A DNA stretch of 64,000 nucleotides from a virus. Lineage: Duplodnaviria > Heunggongvirae > Uroviricota > Caudoviricetes. The position numbers and the translations under genes were made by a program. Below the pieces are notes generated by a model. It made no database searches. It had not been told where the DNA came from and saw nothing but the letters and a program-made list of their open reading frames with translations. The first letter of the stretch is position 1. The number at the start of each line of letters is the position of its first letter. The stretch lies in IMG/VR virus record IMGVR_UViG_2645727901_000008; one strand, written 5' to 3'. Shown in pieces: positions 10,950 to 40,853 of this stretch.

Positions 10950-11567
10950 TCATTTTTGTCGGATCTTTTCCAGCATATTTAATTCATTATCACTTTCTGC
11001 TGCTGAGACGGTTGGCCTCACATTTCCGAAATATTTCCTGTGAGACTCATGACTTATGTATTCACCGACAGTTTCATTCTTGAATATACGAATTTGACAT
11101 ATGCGAGATCCAACAATAAGTTCTACAGGGCTATTCCCATGATTAAATAACTCTAAAGATATACAGCCTCTGTACCCTGGTTGTATCATGGTATTTAATG
11201 AAAGACCAAGCCTTGTATAGCTGCTTCTGGACAATACATCAGCGTAGCAATCTGGTGGCAAACAAACATATTCTAATGTTGTTGCCAGTACCACTTGATT
11301 CGGGTAAACAATGAATCTATCCCCAAGATCTCTCCTTGTTTCCTGGAAAAATGTTCTGATTGGTTGATGAGTATCATTGTTTTTTGATGGAATTAACTCT
11401 ATTGACGGCTTCCTTGTCATAATAGACACTAAAAAATCGTAACCAAGTCTAAGGTCTATGGTGAAGTTCCCAATTTGGTTTTTATTTAGAAGAGGTTCAA
11501 TGAACAACGACTCAGGTTCTTCTGATTCATAATATTGCAGCAATTCAGCTTTGCTTAGGAGATTCAT
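10950..11567 (-). CDS. dCTP deaminase-fold (Dcd/dUTPase-superfamily) protein
   Basis: IDLRLG, VYPNQVVLATTLEYVCLP, SSYTRLGLSLN and QPGYRGCISLELFNHGNSPVELIVGSRICQIRIF align motif-by-motif with E. coli Dcd as I recall it; ATG at 11567 overlaps upstream stop (ATGA). Confidence 0.65.
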   Translation of the reverse strand: MNLLSKAELLQYYESEEPESLFIEPLLNKNQIGNFTIDLRLGYDFLVSIMTRKPSIELIPSKNNDTHQPIRTFFQETRRDLGDRFIVYPNQVVLATTLEYVCLPPDCYADVLSRSSYTRLGLSLNTMIQPGYRGCISLELFNHGNSPVELIVGSRICQIRIFKNETVGEYISHESHRKYFGNVRPTVSAAESDNELNMLEKIRQK

Positions 11568-12637
11568 TGTGCACTCCATTTTTCAAGAATCATTACGTTT
11601 CGAATCGATTTTTCAACCAAATCATTTATAGTTTTTTCTATGGCTTCTTGTGACAACCCAGACCATATACCCGTAGGTTTTTCCCATTCAGAGCATAAGT
11701 ACTGCCAGCTGCTGTTAATAAAAGCATGCATTTCATTGTGGTCGCGAATAACAAAAGGACGCACATTATCAAAAGCTGATTTCACATCAAGCAAAGGTGT
11801 CGGCAATGTCAAACAAGGAGAAATAATCTGCCCACCATTATGTAAGGCTGATATCACAGCATTGAACATGCCAACAACTGGATTTTCCACTTTGTTCAAA
11901 AAGTCGCTTACAATTTTAACTCTATCTTCTGTGGATGGGTGAGTATAGCTTGCAGGATGAGAGCCAGCTAATTTGTATAAGAAATCTACCCCACTTTTTC
12001 CAATAAATTGGGCACTAAATAGATCTGCAAAATATTCTCTGCAATGATTTATCCAAATAACATCAGGTAGATTACTCCATTCTGGTCCAGGAAGTGTGCC
12101 TTTGTCCTTGGAACGATAGTTAAGACAGGCAAGCTCAGAAATACCTTTGCTAATATCAACGAAATGTCCCAATTCGTGATATAAAGGTATAGAGCATAAT
12201 GGTCGTCTTCTGTACATTTCAGGTAATGAAATCTGAATTAATTCGACATCGAATTTGACATTTAAAACTTCGTCAAATAAAGAATACAAATTCTTGTTTA
12301 CAGACTTAAAATAAAACCCATGCATATCTGGAGATAGGGCTGTGGTTATAAGTGTTTTTTCACTTATCCATTTTTTACAGGCATCATTTAAGCAATAGAC
12401 AATCTCGTAGGGAATTTTCTTTGTAGTACTGCCAGTGAAAAAATTAACTGCATCGGTGATAAAAAAAGTACAATCCGCAATTATTTTATCAGCAACATTC
12501 ACATGGTTTTCATAGAGCTTATCCACCGCTTCTTGTAGAACAGCAAGATATTCATGCATGTCTTTAGAAAAATAGGGAGATTCTGATATCTCCCTTAGCT
12601 TATTTCGAACTAATGTAAGTTGTGTAAATGCAAGCAT
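11564..12637 (-). CDS. HExxH zinc-metallopeptidase-like protein (357 aa)
   Basis: YHELGHFVD motif with downstream acidic/His residues; start ATG overlaps upstream stop by 1 nt. Confidence 0.5.
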   Translation of the reverse strand: MLAFTQLTLVRNKLREISESPYFSKDMHEYLAVLQEAVDKLYENHVNVADKIIADCTFFITDAVNFFTGSTTKKIPYEIVYCLNDACKKWISEKTLITTALSPDMHGFYFKSVNKNLYSLFDEVLNVKFDVELIQISLPEMYRRRPLCSIPLYHELGHFVDISKGISELACLNYRSKDKGTLPGPEWSNLPDVIWINHCREYFADLFSAQFIGKSGVDFLYKLAGSHPASYTHPSTEDRVKIVSDFLNKVENPVVGMFNAVISALHNGGQIISPCLTLPTPLLDVKSAFDNVRPFVIRDHNEMHAFINSSWQYLCSEWEKPTGIWSGLSQEAIEKTINDLVEKSIRNVMILEKWSAQ

Positions 12638-12942
12638 TAAATGTACTCTAATACATTCCGGGCCATTACGGGTTCTAACATATCTTCGCTAGTTACTTTG
12701 GTTAGCACCTGGGCGAGCGCCTTAGTGTGGCGTATCTCTACCGCGAGCGAGATGGACTCTCTGTGAGAAGGAATCTGTAATTGATCACCTTTATCTACAC
12801 TTAAGTTTGAGGCTTCTCTGATCACCTCATAAACCCGTAACTTTAACTGCTGTGACACTTCTTGTTGAGATGCTATAAGCTGAAGTACAGTCTTGATCAA
12901 CTTCAAAGAATCAGAAGCTTGCTGAGGAACCGCATAGAGCAT
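12637..12942 (-). CDS. Small helical protein (101 aa), first gene of the three-gene cassette
   Basis: ATG at 12942 with GGAGGGG RBS; coupled to the next gene. Confidence 0.5.
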   Translation of the reverse strand: MLYAVPQQASDSLKLIKTVLQLIASQQEVSQQLKLRVYEVIREASNLSVDKGDQLQIPSHRESISLAVEIRHTKALAQVLTKVTSEDMLEPVMARNVLEYI

Positions 12943-20611: not shown

Positions 20612-20911
20612 ATGAGTCAAGGTAACGGTGGTGGAGCTGCAAAGTGCAGAATCTCCACTTGTTTGATTAATGGCAGAAAAATAGAACCGTGCGCGGCGCT
20701 GGCACAATCTCTGGAGCAGGATGCTGAATACACGACGCGAAAAGGCCTGCTGAAATACAAAGTCTATAACCATGAATTAATTCATTCACAGGACCTGATC
20801 ATGCTGCGGTCTGGTGAATTTTCTAAATCGCCTATTCGAGTTTCATTTTGCCCATTCTGTGGTGAAAGTCTGAAAACGTGGGAAGCGGAGGCAACCAGTG
20901 AGCAAAATTAA
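20612..20911 (+). CDS. Small Cys-containing protein (paralog of 22405-22667)
   Basis: Shares C-terminal FCPFCGESLKTW...EATSE with the paralog. Confidence 0.45.
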   Translation: MSQGNGGGAAKCRISTCLINGRKIEPCAALAQSLEQDAEYTTRKGLLKYKVYNHELIHSQDLIMLRSGEFSKSPIRVSFCPFCGESLKTWEAEATSEQN

Positions 20912-21356
20912 CTATCAAGAACTGCGCGAGGCGGCGGAACAGGCAACGCAAGATGAATGGGTAGCATATATTTTGCCGGGTCATAACGGCATTTATCCTG
21001 CGCGCACGTCTGAAGGTAGGCATTGCGGATACTTTATTGACTGGCCTGGCATTGATGGACAAAGGAATGCTGGTGCTAATGCCCGTTATATCGCGGCTAT
21101 CCCACCAAAAGTTGCACTGTCACTCCTAGGCGAAATTAAGCGCCTGGAGGACAAAAATATTGATGCCATGTGCCAAATTGCAGAGCTGGAGAGCAATCGC
21201 GCGGCGCTGGCGGCGGAGCATGGTATTCAGATTGCAATAAATGAACTGCTTGCTCTGGCCCCGCGTCTGGATAAACGAGCGATGGATGCACTCTCTGTGG
21301 CTGTGGAGCACCTGTGTAAACTGATTAAGAAGGAGGCAGTCAGTGAGCAAAATTAA
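20898..21356 (+). CDS. Ead/Ea22-like protein
   Basis: N-terminal MSKINYQELREAAE signature shared by three paralogs. Confidence 0.55.
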   Translation: MSKINYQELREAAEQATQDEWVAYILPGHNGIYPARTSEGRHCGYFIDWPGIDGQRNAGANARYIAAIPPKVALSLLGEIKRLEDKNIDAMCQIAELESNRAALAAEHGIQIAINELLALAPRLDKRAMDALSVAVEHLCKLIKKEAVSEQN

Positions 21357-22023
21357 TTACCAGGCACTGCGTGAGGCGGCAGAAAAAGCACTACATGGTG
21401 AATGGGGTTACGAGGCAGGGGCAATCTGGAATACCTGTGATAGCGGCTATGTTCAGCACATGGCAGCGGTCGAGACTGGCGATGATGTTAGCGATGAAGA
21501 GCATATGAGCAATATGCGTTTTATCACGCTCGCCACGCCAACTGTTGTTCTTGGATTGCTTGATGAGCTTTCTGAAGCTAAAGCTGCCGAAGAGAATGAG
21601 TCCAGTTGTGCTAACAGCGTTATCGACATCGCTATCAACTGGCAGATGCGAGCCAAAGATGCAGAAGCCAAGCTGGAAGCCGCAGAGAAGCGCATTGCGG
21701 AACTGGAAACAAAAGCGAACCAGCAAACCAGAATAAGCGATAAGAATCTGACCAGGCTGATTGCCGATGCTGACAAAATGCTGGGTATGCGTTCGCCGGT
21801 TATAGACAGCGAGTGGTGGACGCTTTTACGGCAGTTCCTGATTGAACTTCAGGATCGCCGCAGAAACAGCATTTCTGAATCTGGAATCCGTGCTGAAACC
21901 CTGAATGATTTAATCCGACATATTGACAGAAACCTGGATATTGACGCGATGAAATCGCCGTTTGAACTGTCATCTGAAATTGTGGATTACGTTAATAGGC
22001 AACTGCACAAGGAGAATTCGTAA
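21343..22023 (+). CDS. Ead/Ea22-like protein (226 aa)
   Basis: MSKINYQALREAAEKA N-terminus; coiled-coil middle. Confidence 0.55.
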   Translation: MSKINYQALREAAEKALHGEWGYEAGAIWNTCDSGYVQHMAAVETGDDVSDEEHMSNMRFITLATPTVVLGLLDELSEAKAAEENESSCANSVIDIAINWQMRAKDAEAKLEAAEKRIAELETKANQQTRISDKNLTRLIADADKMLGMRSPVIDSEWWTLLRQFLIELQDRRRNSISESGIRAETLNDLIRHIDRNLDIDAMKSPFELSSEIVDYVNRQLHKENS

Positions 22024-22242
22024 TGCAGGTGGCATTTGTTGGCCTGTTACCGCATCCGATCCGCCTTTGGGCGGATATGTCACTCATAAAAACGCATTTT
22101 TTTACTACTGATGGCGGCATTCCGGCACCAAAGCGCCGTCATACCGGTATTGCAGCGGCACGACGAGCAGCAAAGAGACGCAGGAGAGCAAAGCGATGAA
22201 AAACCGTAAAGCAAATAAAGTGGCAAAACAGGAGGCGGCGCA

Positions 22243-22404
22243 GTGAACCAGCAAACCAGAATAAGCGATAAGAGCCTGACCAGACTGATTGCCGATGCGG
22301 ACAAGGTGCTGGAGCGGAACACACCCGTTGCCGATGAGGAATGGTGGCAGGATTTCCGGGCTGCAATGCTGGAACTTCAGGAACGTCGTCGGGAGGAGTT
22401 GAAG
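22243..22404 (+). pseudogene. Remnant of an Ead/Ea22-like C-terminal segment (about 150-bp imperfect direct repeat of 21717-21870)
   Basis: DNA and translation (NQQTRISDKSLTRLIADADK...) repeat the C-terminal part of ORF 21343-22023. Confidence 0.4.
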
Positions 22405-22667
22405 TGAGTGAATTAAAGTGTCGAATTAATGGCAATCAGATAGAACCGTGTGCGGTACTGGCAAAAGCACTCGAATATGGAAATCCAGCCTTTAAGAGTA
22501 AAGGCATATTTATCCCGGAACGCGTGAATATAAATACCGGCGAGCCAGGCTTAGACATTGCTCAAATTCACTCCGGCCAATATGTCGGTCGTGGTGTTGC
22601 CATGTGTTTTTGCCCGTTCTGTGGTGAAAGTCTGAAAACATGGAAAAAGGAGGCAACCAGTGAGTGA
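22405..22667 (+). CDS. Small Cys-containing protein (paralog of 20612-20911), probable GTG start
   Basis: Paralogous C-terminus; the longer ORF-track start overlaps the remnant. Confidence 0.45.
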
Positions 22668-23214
22668 AGTTAACTATCAGGCACTGCGTGAGGTGGCAGA
22701 GGCCGCGAAGGGGGATACGACGTGGCAGAACCTACAGGCTTTTCATGCTGCGGCAACGCTGGAGGTTGTGCAGGCGTTGCTGGATGAAAACGAAAGACTG
22801 TGTCGCGATCTGATAGCTCGTAATGGTGAGATTGAAGGGCTTCGGGAGTGGGCAGAAGAACTGGAGGCACGGGAAGTGGCTTTGCCAGTAGCGTCATGCA
22901 TTGTTGAAGATGGATGCATGTGTGTTGATGGGTTCAGTGAGTATGTAGGTCACTCGCTACCTGATGGAATGCATGAGCTTTATGCTGCCCCACCAGCGTC
23001 GGTAGTGCCGGAAGGACTAGTTAAAGCAGTGCGTTTCTATGAACAGGTAAAGTGTGAGAATCCGCCAGTCGAAACCGGAGCATGGAAAGACGCTATTGAC
23101 TGGGTGCTCAAAGAGGCTTGCCAGGCTGTAAACATTGGCATCAAAGGAGAGAGATATGGCAACTTTAACAAAAAAAGAACAAGCATGGTTGAACGAATTA
23201 CAGGACGTTCTTGA
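22660..23214 (+). CDS. Ead/Ea22-like protein (184 aa)
   Basis: MSEVNYQALREVAEAA N-terminus. Confidence 0.55.
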   Translation: MSEVNYQALREVAEAAKGDTTWQNLQAFHAAATLEVVQALLDENERLCRDLIARNGEIEGLREWAEELEAREVALPVASCIVEDGCMCVDGFSEYVGHSLPDGMHELYAAPPASVVPEGLVKAVRFYEQVKCENPPVETGAWKDAIDWVLKEACQAVNIGIKGERYGNFNKKRTSMVERITGRS

Positions 23215-30493: not shown

Positions 30494-31522
30494 TTATGAA
30501 TCCATCAGGCGGCTATTAGCCCCCACAGACACGCCGCCACGGCGCAGATACCGCATAAGTGTTTCCGGTTTCTTCCAGGTTCCTTCCTGCATGATCTCCA
30601 CCATAGACACCTGCTTTTCAGCCATATCGATAGCGGCCCCGACACGAGCACTATGCCCGGTCCACGTCCGGTATCTCCCTTTGTTTGGCGTGGCATCTCT
30701 TTTATTCAGCAACACCCAGGCGTCGCTGAATATTTTCTCCATTGCAGGTGCAGTAAGGGGAGTTGTCGTAATCCTGGCCTTATTGCTACGGTGTATCGGC
30801 GGGAACAGCACCGCGTCAGGATGTTCACGAAGCCCGGAAACATCCAGCCAGTCATTCAGCACTGCGGTAGTGCGACGGGAAAGCACCTTATCAAGCCCGG
30901 CGGCGGTCGTTATTGTCTTCGTGTGTGAAATATGTAGCGTGACAGTGTCACCTGTTTGGTCCAGATCTCCTACACGAATACGCGAGATTTCAGACATTCG
31001 CATCAGCGTATTGTATGCAACGAAGAGGAAAGCCCGGTTACGCAGGTCCACCAGCCGTTCTGACCTGGACAACAGGACGTCGAGCAGTTTCAGATCGTCC
31101 CACCGCAGCGGTATAGCCTGGCCTGTTCGTTCGCCTTTTTCCGTTGCCGCTTCGCGCCGGATGCGCCGCATAGCCAGAGAAACACTTTTATCATCCGAAA
31201 GTGGCGGAAGGCCACAATGCGAAAGCAGCATGTTAAGCATGGCGTAGTGCTTATCAATGGTGGTCGAAGCCAGATCAGCATCATGCAGCTGAAGAAAATA
31301 CTCGCGGGCCATCTCTGGTGAGATCGGGAACCAAGCGAGCTGGCGAGCGTGGCACCATCGCGCCCAGGAGTGAAACACTAACCGGAGATCGCGCAAAGTA
31401 TTCGGCGCGTAAGCCCCCTGGTCATTCATGAACCGCATAAAGTTTTCTGCGGCCTCCTGGTACTCTTTGCCAATGTTGCGCAGAAAACCACCGGAGCTGC
31501 CAGAGATAATTAATTCACTCAT
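30494..31522 (-). CDS. dre: Cre-family tyrosine recombinase (Dre-like)
   Basis: 342 aa; aligns with P1 Cre at NMLLSHCGLPPLSDDKSVSLAMRRIRRE and WTGHSARVGAAIDMAEKQVSMVEIMQEGTW; cognate site is rox-like. Confidence 0.85.
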   Translation of the reverse strand: MSELIISGSSGGFLRNIGKEYQEAAENFMRFMNDQGAYAPNTLRDLRLVFHSWARWCHARQLAWFPISPEMAREYFLQLHDADLASTTIDKHYAMLNMLLSHCGLPPLSDDKSVSLAMRRIRREAATEKGERTGQAIPLRWDDLKLLDVLLSRSERLVDLRNRAFLFVAYNTLMRMSEISRIRVGDLDQTGDTVTLHISHTKTITTAAGLDKVLSRRTTAVLNDWLDVSGLREHPDAVLFPPIHRSNKARITTTPLTAPAMEKIFSDAWVLLNKRDATPNKGRYRTWTGHSARVGAAIDMAEKQVSMVEIMQEGTWKKPETLMRYLRRGGVSVGANSRLMDS

Positions 31523-31673
31523 GAAACTATTTAACCTCTATATACAGATGACGCTACGCAAAAATATAAAAATGACAGGGTAGCTATAAGTTAATTTTCA
31601 AAATTCAAGCCTTTGATTCGAGGCACGTATTTTTAGTGATGTCAACACTGATCATCTACCCATGATTATAGTC

Positions 31674-31705
31674 TAACTTTAAATAATGCCAATTATCTAA
31701 AGTTA
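31674..31705. other. rox-like recombination site TAACTTTAAATAAT-GCCA-ATTATCTAAAGTTA (one substitution relative to rox as recalled), about 150 bp upstream of the recombinase start
   Basis: 14-bp inverted arms around a 4-bp spacer read from sequence; also related to loxP. Confidence 0.8.
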
Positions 31706-31906
31706 GAAACTTAGGAATTTTTTTCCTTTCCCCGTAGATGGGCAATGCATTGCTGGCGTGGGCTTTAAGTTATGCCTGGCAGTTTTTAAGCAGAATTTTC
31801 TAAATTGGATGACAAAAAAATGCATCTTGATCCTTTACTCACCCTGTTATTCGGCATAGATTTGTCATAGTAATTTTATGTTAGAAAACTAAATCGAGTA
31901 GGAATA

Positions 31907-32944
31907 ATGAGTAAGAAGTCGATCGAGAAAGAGTACAAACGGTTCCTGCAAACCGCTGAACGGTGGAAAGAGCTGGTGGTCGCAAACTCTGTTTTCCATG
32001 ATACCAGTTATGCCGGCGAGGAATTCCGCCACGTTGCACTAACACATGATCAGAATGTACTAGAAGAAGCTGAAAAGTGCCTCACAGAATGGAAAGCCTT
32101 TGTTGACTTGTGCCGTAACGCTGACGGCAAAGCGTCCAACATTGTTGAGTCTGTATATTCTCCGATCCCATTCATTATTGAGGACACAAATCAAAGCACG
32201 CATATTGTTGTGCAAAGCGCGACCACCACCCGCTCATTTACGCGCGAAAATCTGCTCAAAAAATATGATGCAATTATAAAGAAAAGCCTGAAAAACAAGA
32301 TATTTTCGCAGATTGTTGGTGCACTTGAAGAAGAGCGCCGTTTTTTCGCATCAGAACCTGAAGGGGAAGTTTACCGGGCGCGCAAAGATGGATACACAGA
32401 TGTAGTGCTTACAACAAACATTGAAGGCAGCAATGCTCTGTCACGATTCAGGGTAGGCGCACACGGAGCCTTAGTGTTCGCAAAACTTCCGAACACCACA
32501 GTGCCCGTTGTTAATAATGTCGGCGAACGTCGCAGCATTACTATTTATTCTGGGGTTGAGTCGATACCTTGCGGCCTGCTTGGTGACTTTAGCCTCTATC
32601 GCGTTCGCGATCTGGAGAAACACCAACCAAGCTATGTTGCGAAGTCATATATCTTGCGAAACATCGACATCCGCAATGAGAGCTTAAAGAACAAATCAGC
32701 CAAAATGCTTGAGGAAGCCGATCCGGCTATTCGCCATATCATTGAGCGTAAAATACAGACAGCACGCGAAGCGATGGCGAGACTGAATAAAATGGATCTG
32801 GAGTTGTTAGACGTAATGATGACATCCGGAGATGACCTGACAGGCATAAAACTGACAGACGCGCGGAAAAGATACGGTAAAACCATAGAAGAACGTTACG
32901 GGTTCACTTTCTCCCAAACACAGCACGCCGCTAAACTCTGGTAA
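31907..32944 (+). CDS. Hypothetical protein (345 aa) at the position P1 uses for its c1 repressor
   Basis: Convergent with pacB and adjacent to the recombination site; TGTTAGAAAA motif 22 bp upstream; no similarity to P1 C1 that I can recognise. Confidence 0.5.
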   Translation: MSKKSIEKEYKRFLQTAERWKELVVANSVFHDTSYAGEEFRHVALTHDQNVLEEAEKCLTEWKAFVDLCRNADGKASNIVESVYSPIPFIIEDTNQSTHIVVQSATTTRSFTRENLLKKYDAIIKKSLKNKIFSQIVGALEEERRFFASEPEGEVYRARKDGYTDVVLTTNIEGSNALSRFRVGAHGALVFAKLPNTTVPVVNNVGERRSITIYSGVESIPCGLLGDFSLYRVRDLEKHQPSYVAKSYILRNIDIRNESLKNKSAKMLEEADPAIRHIIERKIQTAREAMARLNKMDLELLDVMMTSGDDLTGIKLTDARKRYGKTIEERYGFTFSQTQHAAKLW

Positions 32945-32969: not shown

Positions 32970-34478
32970 TTATATATCCAGATCTGGCATTTCCACATCT
33001 GCAAGAACCTGATCGCGGAAGGTAGCCATTTCAGCGCCGATATCTTCATTAGCAGGAACATAGTCCACCAGCATTGTAAAGCAGTAGGTATCCCATCGGT
33101 CAGGTGATTTGATGTTCAGCTTTTGCCGCATGTGCTCCTTGCGCATCATCGCCATCTTCCCTTCTTCATTAAGTAAAAAGGGGATTTTTGACGCTTGCTC
33201 TGCCGTTTTAGGGTCACTGTCTATTCGCATACGACCTGACTTTATGGCATCACGAGCCATAATATTTGCGTAGGCACGTTGGTTAACAAAACGCTCCTTG
33301 TCTTTGTTCGAAAACATGGGTTTCCCCCACCGAATACGTACCGGATTAGCCCCACGGCGCACCAGCTGCGCACAGGTATCTGAACCAAAACCGTCTGCGT
33401 CAACCGCGATTGTAATATTCGGGTATTTATCCGGCGTGCATTCGTTGTATATAAAGTCAGCAAAAGCCAGCGGGTCCATAGTCCCTGGCATTTCCATTAT
33501 CTTAAAGTTAACAACGCGCCGCTTATTCCTGTGACCTGACACCTTGCAGATGTTAAGGACCGACTTGTCTCGCCCGTTCCCAACGTCAGCTGTCGCTACC
33601 CACCCCCAATTTTTCTCCAACAACACCTTGCGCCGCGCAGCGCGATCGCATTCATCACGACCAAGCAAATAGCCGTTAATCTCCCGAGGGAACTGACCAA
33701 GCACCTTAACCATATACTCAATAGAATCGCGCCCGCCATATTCCAGGAGTTTCTGCCTGATGAATTGTGGTGTGACGAACGGTGATTCTTCTGAGTTAAG
33801 AACAATTGCTGTCCAGATCCCTTTCGGGTTGTCTGGGGTTTTAGCTTGAGAATGGTGCGAATCGTAGAAATAACCACTTGGCCTTGTTGGCTGGGATAGC
33901 ATCAACATTCGGTTATCTTCTTCAGTAAGAGCACCGGTCATTACGCCGATCGCCTTATCAGATATACCAGATGCTTCATCCAGAATTAGAAGCAAATGTG
34001 CCGCGTGTTCCCCCGCCAGCGCTTCTTCGTTGCCGAGTCGATAACCTTTGCAGAGAACTTCCCAAATCCCCTTACGGGAGCGCTCATAAAACATGGTGTC
34101 AGAGAGGACAAAATAGGTCTGCAACCACCCATGACGCTTAACTGCATTCGCCCAATACTGTTTAACGTATTTGAATACGCCTGTTTTTACCTGGCCTATC
34201 TTGTTAGCAACAATGATGACACGGGCATCGGGGAACAGGATCATAAAAATCAACAGCAACATCGCGGTAAGGGACGACTTCCCCGTTCCGTGTCCGGACG
34301 TGACGGTAGTCCTACTCCCCGTTTCCTGCACTGACTGAATGATCTGCTGCTGCTGGTGGGAGGGGAACATCCCAAAAATATCGACAACAGCCTGGGTAAA
34401 GTTGTAGCGGTATTTGATTACCATATCGCGCCAGCGTGGATCGCTGGTGACGCATTTAATCTTGCGCCCGCCAGCCAT
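32970..34478 (-). CDS. pacB: Terminase large subunit (PacB-like)
   Basis: 502 aa; Walker A-like TSGHGTGKSS; downstream of and coupled to the pacA-like gene. Confidence 0.8.
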   Translation of the reverse strand: MAGGRKIKCVTSDPRWRDMVIKYRYNFTQAVVDIFGMFPSHQQQQIIQSVQETGSRTTVTSGHGTGKSSLTAMLLLIFMILFPDARVIIVANKIGQVKTGVFKYVKQYWANAVKRHGWLQTYFVLSDTMFYERSRKGIWEVLCKGYRLGNEEALAGEHAAHLLLILDEASGISDKAIGVMTGALTEEDNRMLMLSQPTRPSGYFYDSHHSQAKTPDNPKGIWTAIVLNSEESPFVTPQFIRQKLLEYGGRDSIEYMVKVLGQFPREINGYLLGRDECDRAARRKVLLEKNWGWVATADVGNGRDKSVLNICKVSGHRNKRRVVNFKIMEMPGTMDPLAFADFIYNECTPDKYPNITIAVDADGFGSDTCAQLVRRGANPVRIRWGKPMFSNKDKERFVNQRAYANIMARDAIKSGRMRIDSDPKTAEQASKIPFLLNEEGKMAMMRKEHMRQKLNIKSPDRWDTYCFTMLVDYVPANEDIGAEMATFRDQVLADVEMPDLDI

Positions 34479-37761: not shown

Positions 37762-37837
37762 TGGTGGCCCCTACCGGACTTGAACCGGTGACCGTGCGAT
37801 TATGAGTCGCCAGCTCTAACCACTGAGCTAAAGGGCC
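37762..37837 (-). tRNA. tRNA-Ile2 (anticodon CAU, ileX-like; would be read as Met without lysidine context)
   Basis: Reverse complement GGCCCTTTAGCTCAGTGGTTAGAGC...GACTCATAATCGC...GGTTCAAGTCC...GGGGCCACCA nearly matches E. coli ileX. Confidence 0.85.
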
Positions 37838-37848
37838 AATTAGTGTTT

Positions 37849-37962
37849 TATTTTCGACGCCTGAGATTCTTCGCGACTTGTTCTACGCCGTATACGATCA
37901 CAAGTAGAAACAGCAAAAACCATCCAGGGTTCTTATCGATATACGTCCAAAAATCCATCATG
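37849..37962 (-). CDS. Possible small membrane peptide (about 37 aa)
   Basis: Translation MMDFWTYIDKNPGWFLLFLLVIVYGVEQVAKNLRRRK. Confidence 0.25.
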
Positions 37963-38120
37963 AGTTCCTGAACGCACCTTCAATAATCGGCAATAGCAAT
38001 ACCACAGCTACTGAAACTAATGCCCCATCAGCCAACACCGACATCACTTTGCTGGTGAAATCCACCAGTACGGACAAAACGAGAAAGCCAATGGCGCCCG
38101 CAATACGCGCCTTGCCAATC
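37959..38120 (-). CDS. Possible small membrane protein (about 53 aa)
   Basis: Translation MIGKARIAGAIGFLVLSVLVDFTSKVMSVLADGALVSVAVVLLLPIIEGAFRNS. Confidence 0.25.
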
Positions 38121-38121
38121 A

Positions 38122-38577
38122 TTACAGATAATCTTCCACACGAAGGCCAAGACGGCGACCAACCTCTTCCAGAACCTTATGCTCCGCAGGTTCGATTTCA
38201 CCATCTGCTTCAGCGATCGTGAGCATGTTCACGAAGACTTCTTCCGCTTCTTTGGGATCGTTTTTGATATCTTCAATTTCGCGGAGGATATTCATGCGAC
38301 CAACACGGAAACCAGCTTCCAGTTGCTCAGTAAAACGGGTGATTGTTGCGGTAATTTCGTTGCCAAAATGACTTAAGCGAGGATTAGAGCGGACAAGCTG
38401 ATCAAGTTTCGCTGTTTCTTCCTTTTCGATTTCACCATCTGCGGCAGACACCAGCAAACAGCCACCGATGATGGCCTCCATCAGATCGCGATTCTCAACC
38501 CTTTTCAGCTCTACTTTTGCTGAAGCGACTTTCTTACCGAAAAATTTACCGAACATTGGTTTTCCCTCAATAAACAT
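38122..38577 (-). CDS. TerB-like (tellurite-resistance family) protein; start may be ATG at 38556
   Basis: Repeated helical ...ADGEIE... segments typical of TerB-like proteins; GAGGGAAAA RBS before the internal ATG. Confidence 0.5.
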   Translation of the reverse strand: MFIEGKPMFGKFFGKKVASAKVELKRVENRDLMEAIIGGCLLVSAADGEIEKEETAKLDQLVRSNPRLSHFGNEITATITRFTEQLEAGFRVGRMNILREIEDIKNDPKEAEEVFVNMLTIAEADGEIEPAEHKVLEEVGRRLGLRVEDYL

Positions 38578-38823
38578 GACGTATTTATTAGGTTGCGGTG
38601 CCTGGTGCCTCCAGGTGACGTTAACCAGTTAACAATTAACGCCGGGATTTTTGTCTTCACAATTAAGGAGGATTGTTTTAACTGTTCCGCGTGCGCTTAG
38701 CCGCATTCACCGCAATGGTAAGAGCACTTGGCTGGCTGGGCGGCGATGACGCCTGTACGCATTTGGTGAACCGGTTCTGCTTCCGGCATTCGCTTAATTA
38801 GCCAAATACTCTTAACGTTGCAC

Positions 38824-38910
38824 TGGCGGAGAGTAATGGAATCGAACCATCATCGCTTGCGCAATGGGACGGTTTTCAAGACCGCTTGAGCACCATGCTC
38901 CCTACTCTCC
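38824..38910 (-). tRNA. tRNA-Ser-like (anticodon UGA, long variable arm), atypical D-arm
   Basis: 7-bp acceptor GGAGAGT/ACTCTCC, anticodon loop CTTGAAA, T-loop TTCGATT, encoded CCA; folded by eye. Confidence 0.5.
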
Positions 38911-39045
38911 CGTTATTGTGGCGACCGGTGCTGATCTCCGGCTTGCGGTTATTTCAGACTCTCACGGGCGTTTAATTGCCCCGCCGAACAGCTCTTTTCC
39001 GCAATAGCTGCAATGTCTTTCGCGCATCAGCCTGCGCATTCACCA

Positions 39046-39135
39046 CAATGTTGAGAACACTGGTTGTCACGCTGCAACGCAACATTTATTCGTAGATTGG
39101 GATATGACCCCGTTACGCCAGTGTTCTCAACGTTG
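39046..39135. repeat. 18-bp inverted repeat CAATGTTGAGAACACTGG ... CCAGTGTTCTCAACGTTG flanking about 54 bp
   Basis: Read from sequence; one mismatch between arms. Confidence 0.55.
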
Positions 39136-39283
39136 TAGTGCCGGTTACGGTTCCGGCCAGGCCTCTTCCTCAACGGGTTGTTCTCCATACGGACTACCGT
39201 TTATTGGTCGTTCCTGCGGTTTATGTTGTGAAGCCAGATGCTTATCTTCTGGTTGCTTCAAAGAGCTGCACTTCATCACAACG

Positions 39284-39356
39284 GTAAGGGTACTTCGTAG
39301 GGATTCGAACCCTCTGCCAAGCACGGCGATCTCCGACGTCGCAAAATACCCTTACC
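39284..39356 (-). other. tRNA-like element with T-arm (GGGTTCGAATCCC) and 10-bp closing stem but no canonical anticodon arm; possible tRNA pseudogene
   Basis: Folded by eye; T-loop present, cloverleaf incomplete. Confidence 0.25.
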
Positions 39357-39364
39357 TGTTGCGT

Positions 39365-39440
39365 TGGTGCCGATTAACGGGATCGAACCGCTGACCATTC
39401 GCTTACAAAGCGACTGCTCTACCAACTGAGCTAAACCGGC
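39365..39440 (-). tRNA. tRNA-Thr (anticodon UGU)
   Basis: Reverse complement GCCGGTTTAGCTCAGTTGGTAGAGC...CTTTGTAAG...GGTTCGATCC...CGGCACCA. Confidence 0.85.
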
Positions 39441-39444
39441 AATT

Positions 39445-39531
39445 TGGTGGGGAGTGATGGAGTCGAACCACCCGAGTCGCAATGACAGTAGATTTACAGT
39501 CTACCCCGCTACCCCTACGGACTAACTCCCC
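39445..39531 (-). tRNA. tRNA-Tyr-like (anticodon GUA, class II long variable arm)
   Basis: Acceptor GGGGAGT/ACTCCCC, anticodon stem-loop GTAGA-CTGTAAA-TCTAC, T-loop TTCGACT, encoded CCA. Confidence 0.6.
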
Positions 39532-39536
39532 TAAAG

Positions 39537-39612
39537 TGGCGATGGTGGGTGGATTCGAACCACCGACCGACAGCTTAGAAGGCTGCTGCTCTATCCTACT
39601 GAGCTACACCAT
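39537..39612 (-). tRNA. tRNA-Arg (anticodon UCU)
   Basis: Reverse complement GATGGTGTAGCTCAGTAGGATAGAGC...CTTCTAA...GGTTCGAATCC...CACCATCGCCA. Confidence 0.85.
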
Positions 39613-40853
39613 CACTTGCCGGGTACGTCTCCGGCGAGGGCTTCCACCTCCGTATGCTTTTCGGCGCACCGCGCCCTGGCTGCAATTCAGTAACAGGGGA
39701 TGCATAACCCTGGCTTCCAGCGTGATTAGCGCCTTCAGCATGACGGGATATACCCGTAACCAACAAACTTTCCCATATACCATCAAACAATGGCTGTTAC
39801 GCGGGAGGGACGTAACAGGTAAGGGCGCTGACCAGAAAGACCTGACCCTTCTCATTCATCTGGTTAATCACACCAGCGCCCTTGCCTGTTATGTCTCCCC
39901 GTTCCCTAATACACAGACGGGGACACTCTGCGGTCGATTTTTTGACGGGGGACGACTCATACCCCGTGGCGTCTGGCTTCTTAGGCCGCTACCATCATCA
40001 GATCATCGTTTGCATTTACTTTAATGGTCGGTTTCTAAACCGCCGCAAAGCCGCTAACCATGACGAAAACCCTAAAAAAGCCCACCCGAAGATGGGCAAA
40101 TACGCTACATCTCACACAAGAAAGAAGCCGACTGCCTGAGCTGGATTCACTTTCAAATGCCCGCAGAAAGGGAACACAAGTCGGCTTCTTTCTTGATGCG
40201 GCACTCTCTCCGCCCGTCACCGTTCTGTCTCGGTTGTCGCGTTTGCCACGCCAGCCGTAACGAGGTTTAAAGTCTTTGCACGTTTCCATCACTCGACTGC
40301 CGTCTGTGGCTGTTCGTTGCAGCGGGGGTGCCTCCCCCTGGGGATATCCCCGGCCTTACCCCATTCTTTCAAGACACAATGCAAGGCCGCATCCGCATAG
40401 GTGCATTACCGCAACATTAAGGAGACTTAGGGCAAAAGGTAATCGCCACAAAAAAAATCCCTATGCCTCCTTAATGTTGAGGATGTGCATTGATGATGAT
40501 TCGATGCGGCGAGTCCCGTTACTCTCTGCCGGACCATCATCAATGAACATCTTAAAAAGACCTTCCGTGGCTCAACATGTCTTGTCGTTTACTCCGTAAA
40601 GTGCTCTCTCTGAAACCACTTTACGCACTAAACCTGCTGAACTTTGGCTTGCTCGGTGCCAAAGCGAGTCCCTGTATGTATGTAATTTTCTAACACTTTA
40701 ATTTGTTATTTGCTGGTGGGCGAACAACAACCAATAAGTGACTATCAAGCCCAGCAAGCGAAATGTGGCAACGCTCCACCAGCAAGGAAAATTCTAAGTT
40801 AAGTTACTCTCACAATCAATACGTTCGTTTAGTGAAATTAGATTTCTAACATT
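39613..40853. other. About 1.2 kb without a convincing CDS; rich in long-loop inverted repeats
   Basis: Only short, overlapping ORFs in all frames; 13-bp inverted repeat CAACATTAAGGAG...CTCCTTAATGTTG around 40408-40478 and others. Confidence 0.4.

Follow-up and report, generated by a model that had tools for sequence, protein, structure and literature searches.

A common natural C allele of rox beside wild-type Dre in a D6-like, P1-type phage-plasmid

The Dre/rox recombination system of Escherichia phage D6 was reportedly described by Sauer and McDermott in 2004. In the GenBank record AY753669, the dre gene is annotated as a "tyrosine recombinase, similar to P1 Cre" and the sequence TAACTTTAAATAATGCCAATTATTTAAAGTTA as the "region of crossover (rox) site for Dre recombinase". 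The laboratory oligonucleotides of two later papers (Karimova 2016; Bessen 2019) carry the same rox sequence, and the canonical rox is defined here by the GenBank annotation together with these two oligonucleotide lists. A close known relative is the Cre/loxP system of phage P1, with which Dre/rox shares the tyrosine-recombinase fold, the catalytic residues and the location of the site beside the c1-pac region. The two systems differ in the layout of the sites, which is 14-4-14 in rox and 13-8-13 in loxP, and in the C8G9T10 block of the arms. More precisely, the C8G9T10/A25C26G27 block separates loxP from both rox and pox (Karimova 2016, PMC4957104), and no cross-recombination between Cre/loxP and Dre/rox has been reported (PMC4777119, PMC4957104).

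Several variants of these sites are also on record. The rox7, rox8, rox12, rox61, rox85 and roxsym sites are all rox sequence variants paired with wild-type Dre, and the engineered variants alter the spacer and the flanking bases, thereby creating incompatibility (Chuang 2016, PMC4777119). The bases responsible for the incompatibility are those of the spacer together with the first one in each arm (Chuang 2016, PMC4777119), and heterospecific sites are those with an altered 4-bp spacer or with changes at positions 2/7 of the 8-bp crossover region (PMC4777119). Dre tolerates mismatches in the arms: it recombines pox and lox8, with two mismatches per half-site, and even lox11, with four mismatches (Jelicic 2023, PMC10250229), and in the case of pox it does so without induction (Karimova 2016, PMC4957104). 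The Panto/pox, lox8 and lox11 systems nevertheless have recombinases and spacers of their own, whereas the recombinase studied here is Dre itself.

We have examined a Dre/rox locus in a stretch of 64,000 nucleotides from a Caudoviricetes virus in IMG/VR (record IMGVR_UViG_2645727901_000008), hereafter called the window (Table 1). An earlier note, made from the sequence alone, had described the 342-aa protein beside the site as a Dre-like recombinase of the Cre family. The family assignment stands, while "Dre-like" turned out to be too cautious, as the protein is identical to the Dre protein of phage D6 at all 342 positions. The gene itself differs from the D6 dre gene at 33 of 1029 nucleotides, 30 of them at third codon positions, and since all 33 differences are synonymous and none is non-synonymous, strong purifying selection acts on the Dre protein. 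The Pfam domain Phage_integrase (PF00589) is recovered with 62.6 bits, the cut-off being 27.1, and the nearest solved structures in a PDB search are those of Cre (E 5e-69), with no deposited Dre structure among the results. Of the 338 positions aligned with Cre, 137 are identical (about 40%), and the PDB search confirms the homology independently. All members of the catalytic R-K-H-R-W-Y set are present as R175, K202, H290, R293, W316 and Y325, and these align with R173, K201, H289, R292, W315 and Y324 in Cre, with a concordant HMMER alignment. Likewise, the protein carries the Dre-type residues R44, P259 and K263, which have been tied to the discrimination between rox and loxP (Karimova 2016, PMC4957104). 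In a scan of species-representative genomes we found only relatives with 41-47% identity to Dre, in Pantoea, Rahnella and Mixta (Panto-like), and these shed no light on the rox alleles.

Table 1. Features of the dre-rox-c1 locus, with positions given in the coordinates of the window.
Feature	Position	Strand	Remark
dre, tyrosine recombinase Dre, 342 aa	30494..31522	-	342/342 identical to AAV84949.1
Sigma-70 promoter-like site directed into dre	31665..31692	-	11/12 consensus positions
rox, natural C allele, 14-4-14 architecture	31674..31705	+	one mismatch to annotated D6 rox
Left (dre-proximal) arm, TAACTTTAAATAAT	31674..31687	+	canonical
Asymmetric 4-bp spacer, GCCA	31688..31691	+	canonical
Right (c1-proximal) arm, ATTATCTAAAGTTA	31692..31705	+	
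Substituted base, T in D6 and C here	31697	+	site position 24, half-site position 8' from the dyad
Variable non-coding block abutting the right arm, about 90 bp	31706..31795	.	no blastn match to D6
c1 repressor gene, alternative allele	31907..32944	+	90% protein and 84% nucleotide identity to D6 C1

The rox site of the window reads TAACTTTAAATAAT-GCCA-ATTATCTAAAGTTA, and the complete 32-mer, TAACTTTAAATAATGCCAATTATCTAAAGTTA, occurs only once in the window. It is identical to the canonical rox at 31 of the 32 positions, including the entire left arm and the spacer, and the bases at 31686-31693 (ATGCCAAT) match the canonical sequence exactly. The earlier note had compared the site with rox and placed a single T-to-C difference in the right arm; both its rox sequence and the difference proved to be right. 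In 100 shuffles of the sequence, the chance expectation for such a match was zero, even when three mismatches were accepted. No second rox site or half-site was detected in the window with up to two mismatches per half-site. The site is located 152 bp upstream of the dre start codon (ATG) and 201 bp to the left of the start of c1.

The genomic setting is that of a D6-like, P1-type phage-plasmid. A local blastn search against the D6 genome (MF356679) covered 83.4% of the window collinearly with 93-97% identity, which supports the assignment to the D6 lineage of P1-like phage-plasmids that the earlier note had put forward. The alignment crosses the origin of the D6 record, a point set at the centre of rox. 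The gene order dut-orf3-orf2-dre-rox-c1-pacB-pacA is common to the window and D6, with two small open reading frames and the dUTPase gene downstream of dre, and with the c1-type repressor gene followed by pacB (32970-34478, minus strand) beyond rox. The distance of about 1.3-4 kb from rox to pacB/pacA matches the arrangement in both P1 and D6. Among complete E. coli records, the best match is to a 109-kb plasmid, with 98.1% identity over 10 kb.

Outside this locus, the window contains some segments that set it apart from D6. A cassette of three genes that is not present in D6 (10950-12942, minus strand) codes for a 209-aa dCTP-deaminase-like protein (Pfam DCD, 1.3e-30) and for proteins of 357 and 101 aa with matches to PHROG families only. 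A PADLOC scan of this cassette gave no match, and it may represent cargo related to nucleotide metabolism or defence. Three Ead/Ea22-like open reading frames in tandem (20898-23214, plus strand) are located in a stretch without a D6 counterpart, with the segment 20930-25409 largely unmatched to D6. Furthermore, a tRNA cluster at 37762-39613 contains Met(cat), Ser(tga), Thr(tgt), Tyr(gta) and Arg(tct), while only Ser, Thr and Asn are annotated at the matching position in the D6 record.

The C allele is common, accounting for about a fifth to a third of the natural sites. Among the PLSDB plasmids, 28 sites carry C and 110 the canonical T, and among complete E. coli genomes the numbers are 28, all plasmid-borne, and 94, although the two collections share records. 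Three of the 94 canonical copies in the complete E. coli genomes are chromosomal, and may have arisen by the integration of D6-like elements or as co-integrates. The 32-base megablast queries required an exact word of 28 bases. No word of this length avoids position 24, so that a query retrieves only copies of the allele that it carries. Scans with a degenerate pattern gave 9 C and 21 T sites in IMG/VR contigs (9/30) and 5 C and 11 T sites in metagenome contigs (5/16), so that C is present in 14 of the 46 pooled sites. No equivalent change was seen in the left arm, which is invariant in all 46 sites from the pattern scans and differs in only three loci (L104, L110 and L111) in a broader survey. 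Position 24 is the only arm position that is recurrently polymorphic among the sites next to Dre relatives with at least 67% identity; in this set, one locus is changed at position 14 and three have changes in the spacer.

The allele is found with different recombinases and on different backgrounds. It adjoins a 100% identical Dre in three IMG/VR loci (L078, L082 and L084) and variants of Dre with 89-90% identity in two others (L103 and L105). Conversely, identical Dre proteins are found with both alleles, and co-variation of Dre with the allele was therefore rejected. The T allele is seen on the window type of right flank in two loci (L083 and L121), and the C allele on at least three flank types. 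Since T and C each occur on more than one right flank, the pattern suggests that the transition is old or has arisen repeatedly, at a position under little constraint. A full-text search of the literature for the variant arm strings retrieved no relevant paper, and the rox matches in the public plasmid and E. coli genome records carry no annotated feature.

What the substitution might do to recombination can be judged from its position in the half-site. The base aligns with A25 in loxP, which is the innermost base of the C8G9T10/A25C26G27 block. In the Rec-seq experiments with Dre, the enrichment of the canonical base was 1.93 at position 8 and 1.86 at position 8', values that pool all three non-canonical bases rather than C alone, as compared to a range of 1.49-3.06 across the site with the strongest preferences at positions 6, 7 and 12 (Bessen 2019). 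The substitution adjoins the strongly preferred positions 6-7 and falls among the three bases that tell rox and loxP apart, because of which a measurable drop in affinity is possible. A mild effect on the efficiency of recombination may likewise exist. Given the mid-range preference at positions 8/8', the tolerance of Dre to mismatches, the unaltered spacer and the natural persistence of the allele beside wild-type Dre, this recombinase is expected to recombine C with C sites as well as C with T sites, and the efficiency should be reduced modestly at most.

Taken together, we consider it very probable that the module is the Dre/rox system of a D6-like, P1-type phage-plasmid, in which the C allele is old, common, probably near-neutral and recombinable by Dre. 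By homology to Cre/loxP, four Dre monomers would occupy both 14-bp arms in each of two rox copies, and the strands would be exchanged inside the central crossover region of the paired sites. The two partners could be provided by a plasmid dimer or by the terminal redundancy of the DNA injected from the virion, and, in view also of the published activity of Dre on rox, the outcome would be the resolution of dimers into monomers and the circularization of the incoming genome. Both roles are extrapolated from P1, and are presumed to be shared by the D6-like element. A rox site with the C allele would in this process be recombined by wild-type Dre both with itself and with the canonical rox, at most somewhat less efficiently.

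The substituted base sits where the similarity to D6 breaks down, at the start of the variable block and the alternative c1 allele. The c1 gene is syntenic with the immC region of D6. The divergence profile against D6, counted in bins of 50 nt from the first base of rox, is uneven. There are 0-6 differences per bin on the dre side, but 31 and 18 in the two bins from +50 to +150 in the block abutting the right arm; the divergence is near zero in the leader and the 5' end of c1, about 10 in the body of the gene, and fades to near zero in pacB. The loci with the C allele mostly have a block and c1 allele of the window type, 96-100% identical to the window, whereas the D6-type loci are 73-86% identical in the block and 84% in c1. 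The dre side is 96-98% identical to the window in both classes, and one locus (L103) pairs a divergent dre, with 80% nucleotide identity, with a c1 side of the window type. The rox site is thus the left edge of a mosaic region. Recombination at rox between elements would yield such a mosaic, and a conserved site located beside a variable spacer would look similar. On the two sides of this region, dre and the distal part of pacB are 95-98% identical to D6. At least three right-flank haplotypes are present in public contigs. The idea that the block to the right of rox contains a structured RNA or a member of a known RNA family was rejected, with no match in the Rfam search and fold z-scores from -1.0 to +0.75, that is, no folding signal.

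Other readings of the substitution have to be weighed against a near-neutral allele. One is that it tunes the expression of dre, through promoter strength or autorepression by Dre, rather than recombination. The promoter-like site directed into dre is close to consensus, with a -35 hexamer TTGGCA (31692-31687) that consists of the rox spacer and one base of each arm, followed after a gap of 16 nt by a -10 hexamer TATAAT (31670-31665) just outside the left arm. The arrangement is identical in D6, and the TATAAT beside the left arm is kept in all D6-like loci, including the diverged lineages. If this predicted promoter is real, Dre bound at rox would occlude it and could thereby regulate its own synthesis, and the substituted base, which would precede the -35 hexamer by about 5 nt, would be in UP-element territory. 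However, the promoter is a consensus match of which about 1.5 are expected by chance at the scan threshold in this AT-rich region, the base falls outside both hexamers, and the C allele is met repeatedly on different backgrounds, in the manner of a neutral change. We therefore regard an effect on dre expression as very unlikely. A related thought is that the allele of the c1-proximal arm has a function of its own, with a weakened half-site at the upstream edge of the dre promoter altering the autoregulation of Dre or the order of strand exchange, and with rox serving as the exact junction for a Dre-mediated swapping of c1 modules between D6-like elements; this we hold to be unlikely.

The earlier note had suggested that the asymmetric arm could alter the directionality or the efficiency of recombination, and had seen in the locus a natural variant of an orthogonal recombinase-site pair, which may be taken to mean a new pair orthogonal to the canonical rox. 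The substitution does break an otherwise perfect symmetry of the arms, in the very block that discriminates rox from loxP. Directionality of the lox66/lox71 (LE/RE) type arises when the two partners have mutations in opposite arms and one product becomes doubly mutant. Here, each element has one site and only the right arm varies, with no left-arm variant among the 46 natural sites. As both partners share the left arm, crossovers would regenerate one T and one C site, or two C sites, with no LE/RE-type trap, and directionality from a change in one arm is not expected. As for orthogonality, the recombinase is wild-type Dre, the bases on which compatibility depends, in the spacer and next to it, are unaltered, both alleles are naturally found with identical Dre proteins, and the allele is present at 20-30% of the natural sites. 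Neither altered directionality nor orthogonality is supported, and this pair of readings is in our view extremely improbable. Finally, a single-base difference in an AT-rich stretch could be taken for a sequencing or assembly error, or for the mark of a decaying, non-functional site. Exact copies of the 32-mer were however found in 28 plasmid records that are independent of one another, in 28 complete genomes and in 14 contigs of environmental origin, and this recurrence across separate assemblies refutes the reading. In addition, the other 31 positions are unaltered, and dre has 33 synonymous versus 0 non-synonymous changes. The probability left for an error or a decaying site is next to nil.

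With a near-neutral C allele that Dre can recombine as the preferred reading, the system is an already known one, namely Dre/rox with a common natural allele that is present in dozens of public records. The locus resembles D6 (AY753669, MF356679) in the identical Dre, the 14-4-14 layout, the GCCA spacer, the left arm, the position between dre and c1 and the neighbourhood, and it differs from D6 in the T24C change in the c1-proximal arm, the synonymous differences in dre, the 90-bp block to the right and the c1 protein. Unlike the engineered rox variants, the natural allele has its change in the arm, outside the 8-bp crossover region, and an intact spacer. The element is an ordinary D6-like phage-plasmid, and the biological import is small. 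Dre/rox is however a standard tool in genome engineering, and the coexistence of wild-type Dre with a C24 rox in roughly one fifth to one third of the elements is useful for the prediction of off-target pseudo-rox sites and for the design of arm variants. The site has been left unannotated in the public records of these plasmids.

Some of the other loci in our survey have changes in the spacer. A natural rox variant with the spacer CCCC is located beside a Dre with 99% identity (L094), another with the spacer GCTA beside a Dre with 70% identity (L108), and a third, TAACTTTAAATAAC-TCCA-ATTATCTAAAGTTA, beside a Dre with 89% identity (L104). Because of the published data on spacer compatibility, these three are candidates for naturally incompatible sites. 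More distant relatives of Dre, with 55-56% identity, are found in two IMG/VR contigs (L110 and L111), where they adjoin the site TAACTTTATATAAT-GTCA-GTTATATAAAGTTA (around 2818-2849). In this site both arms are altered at 9/24, the position that is polymorphic in the D6-like rox, and the spacer differs as well; the two loci may represent a distinct recombinase-site pair.
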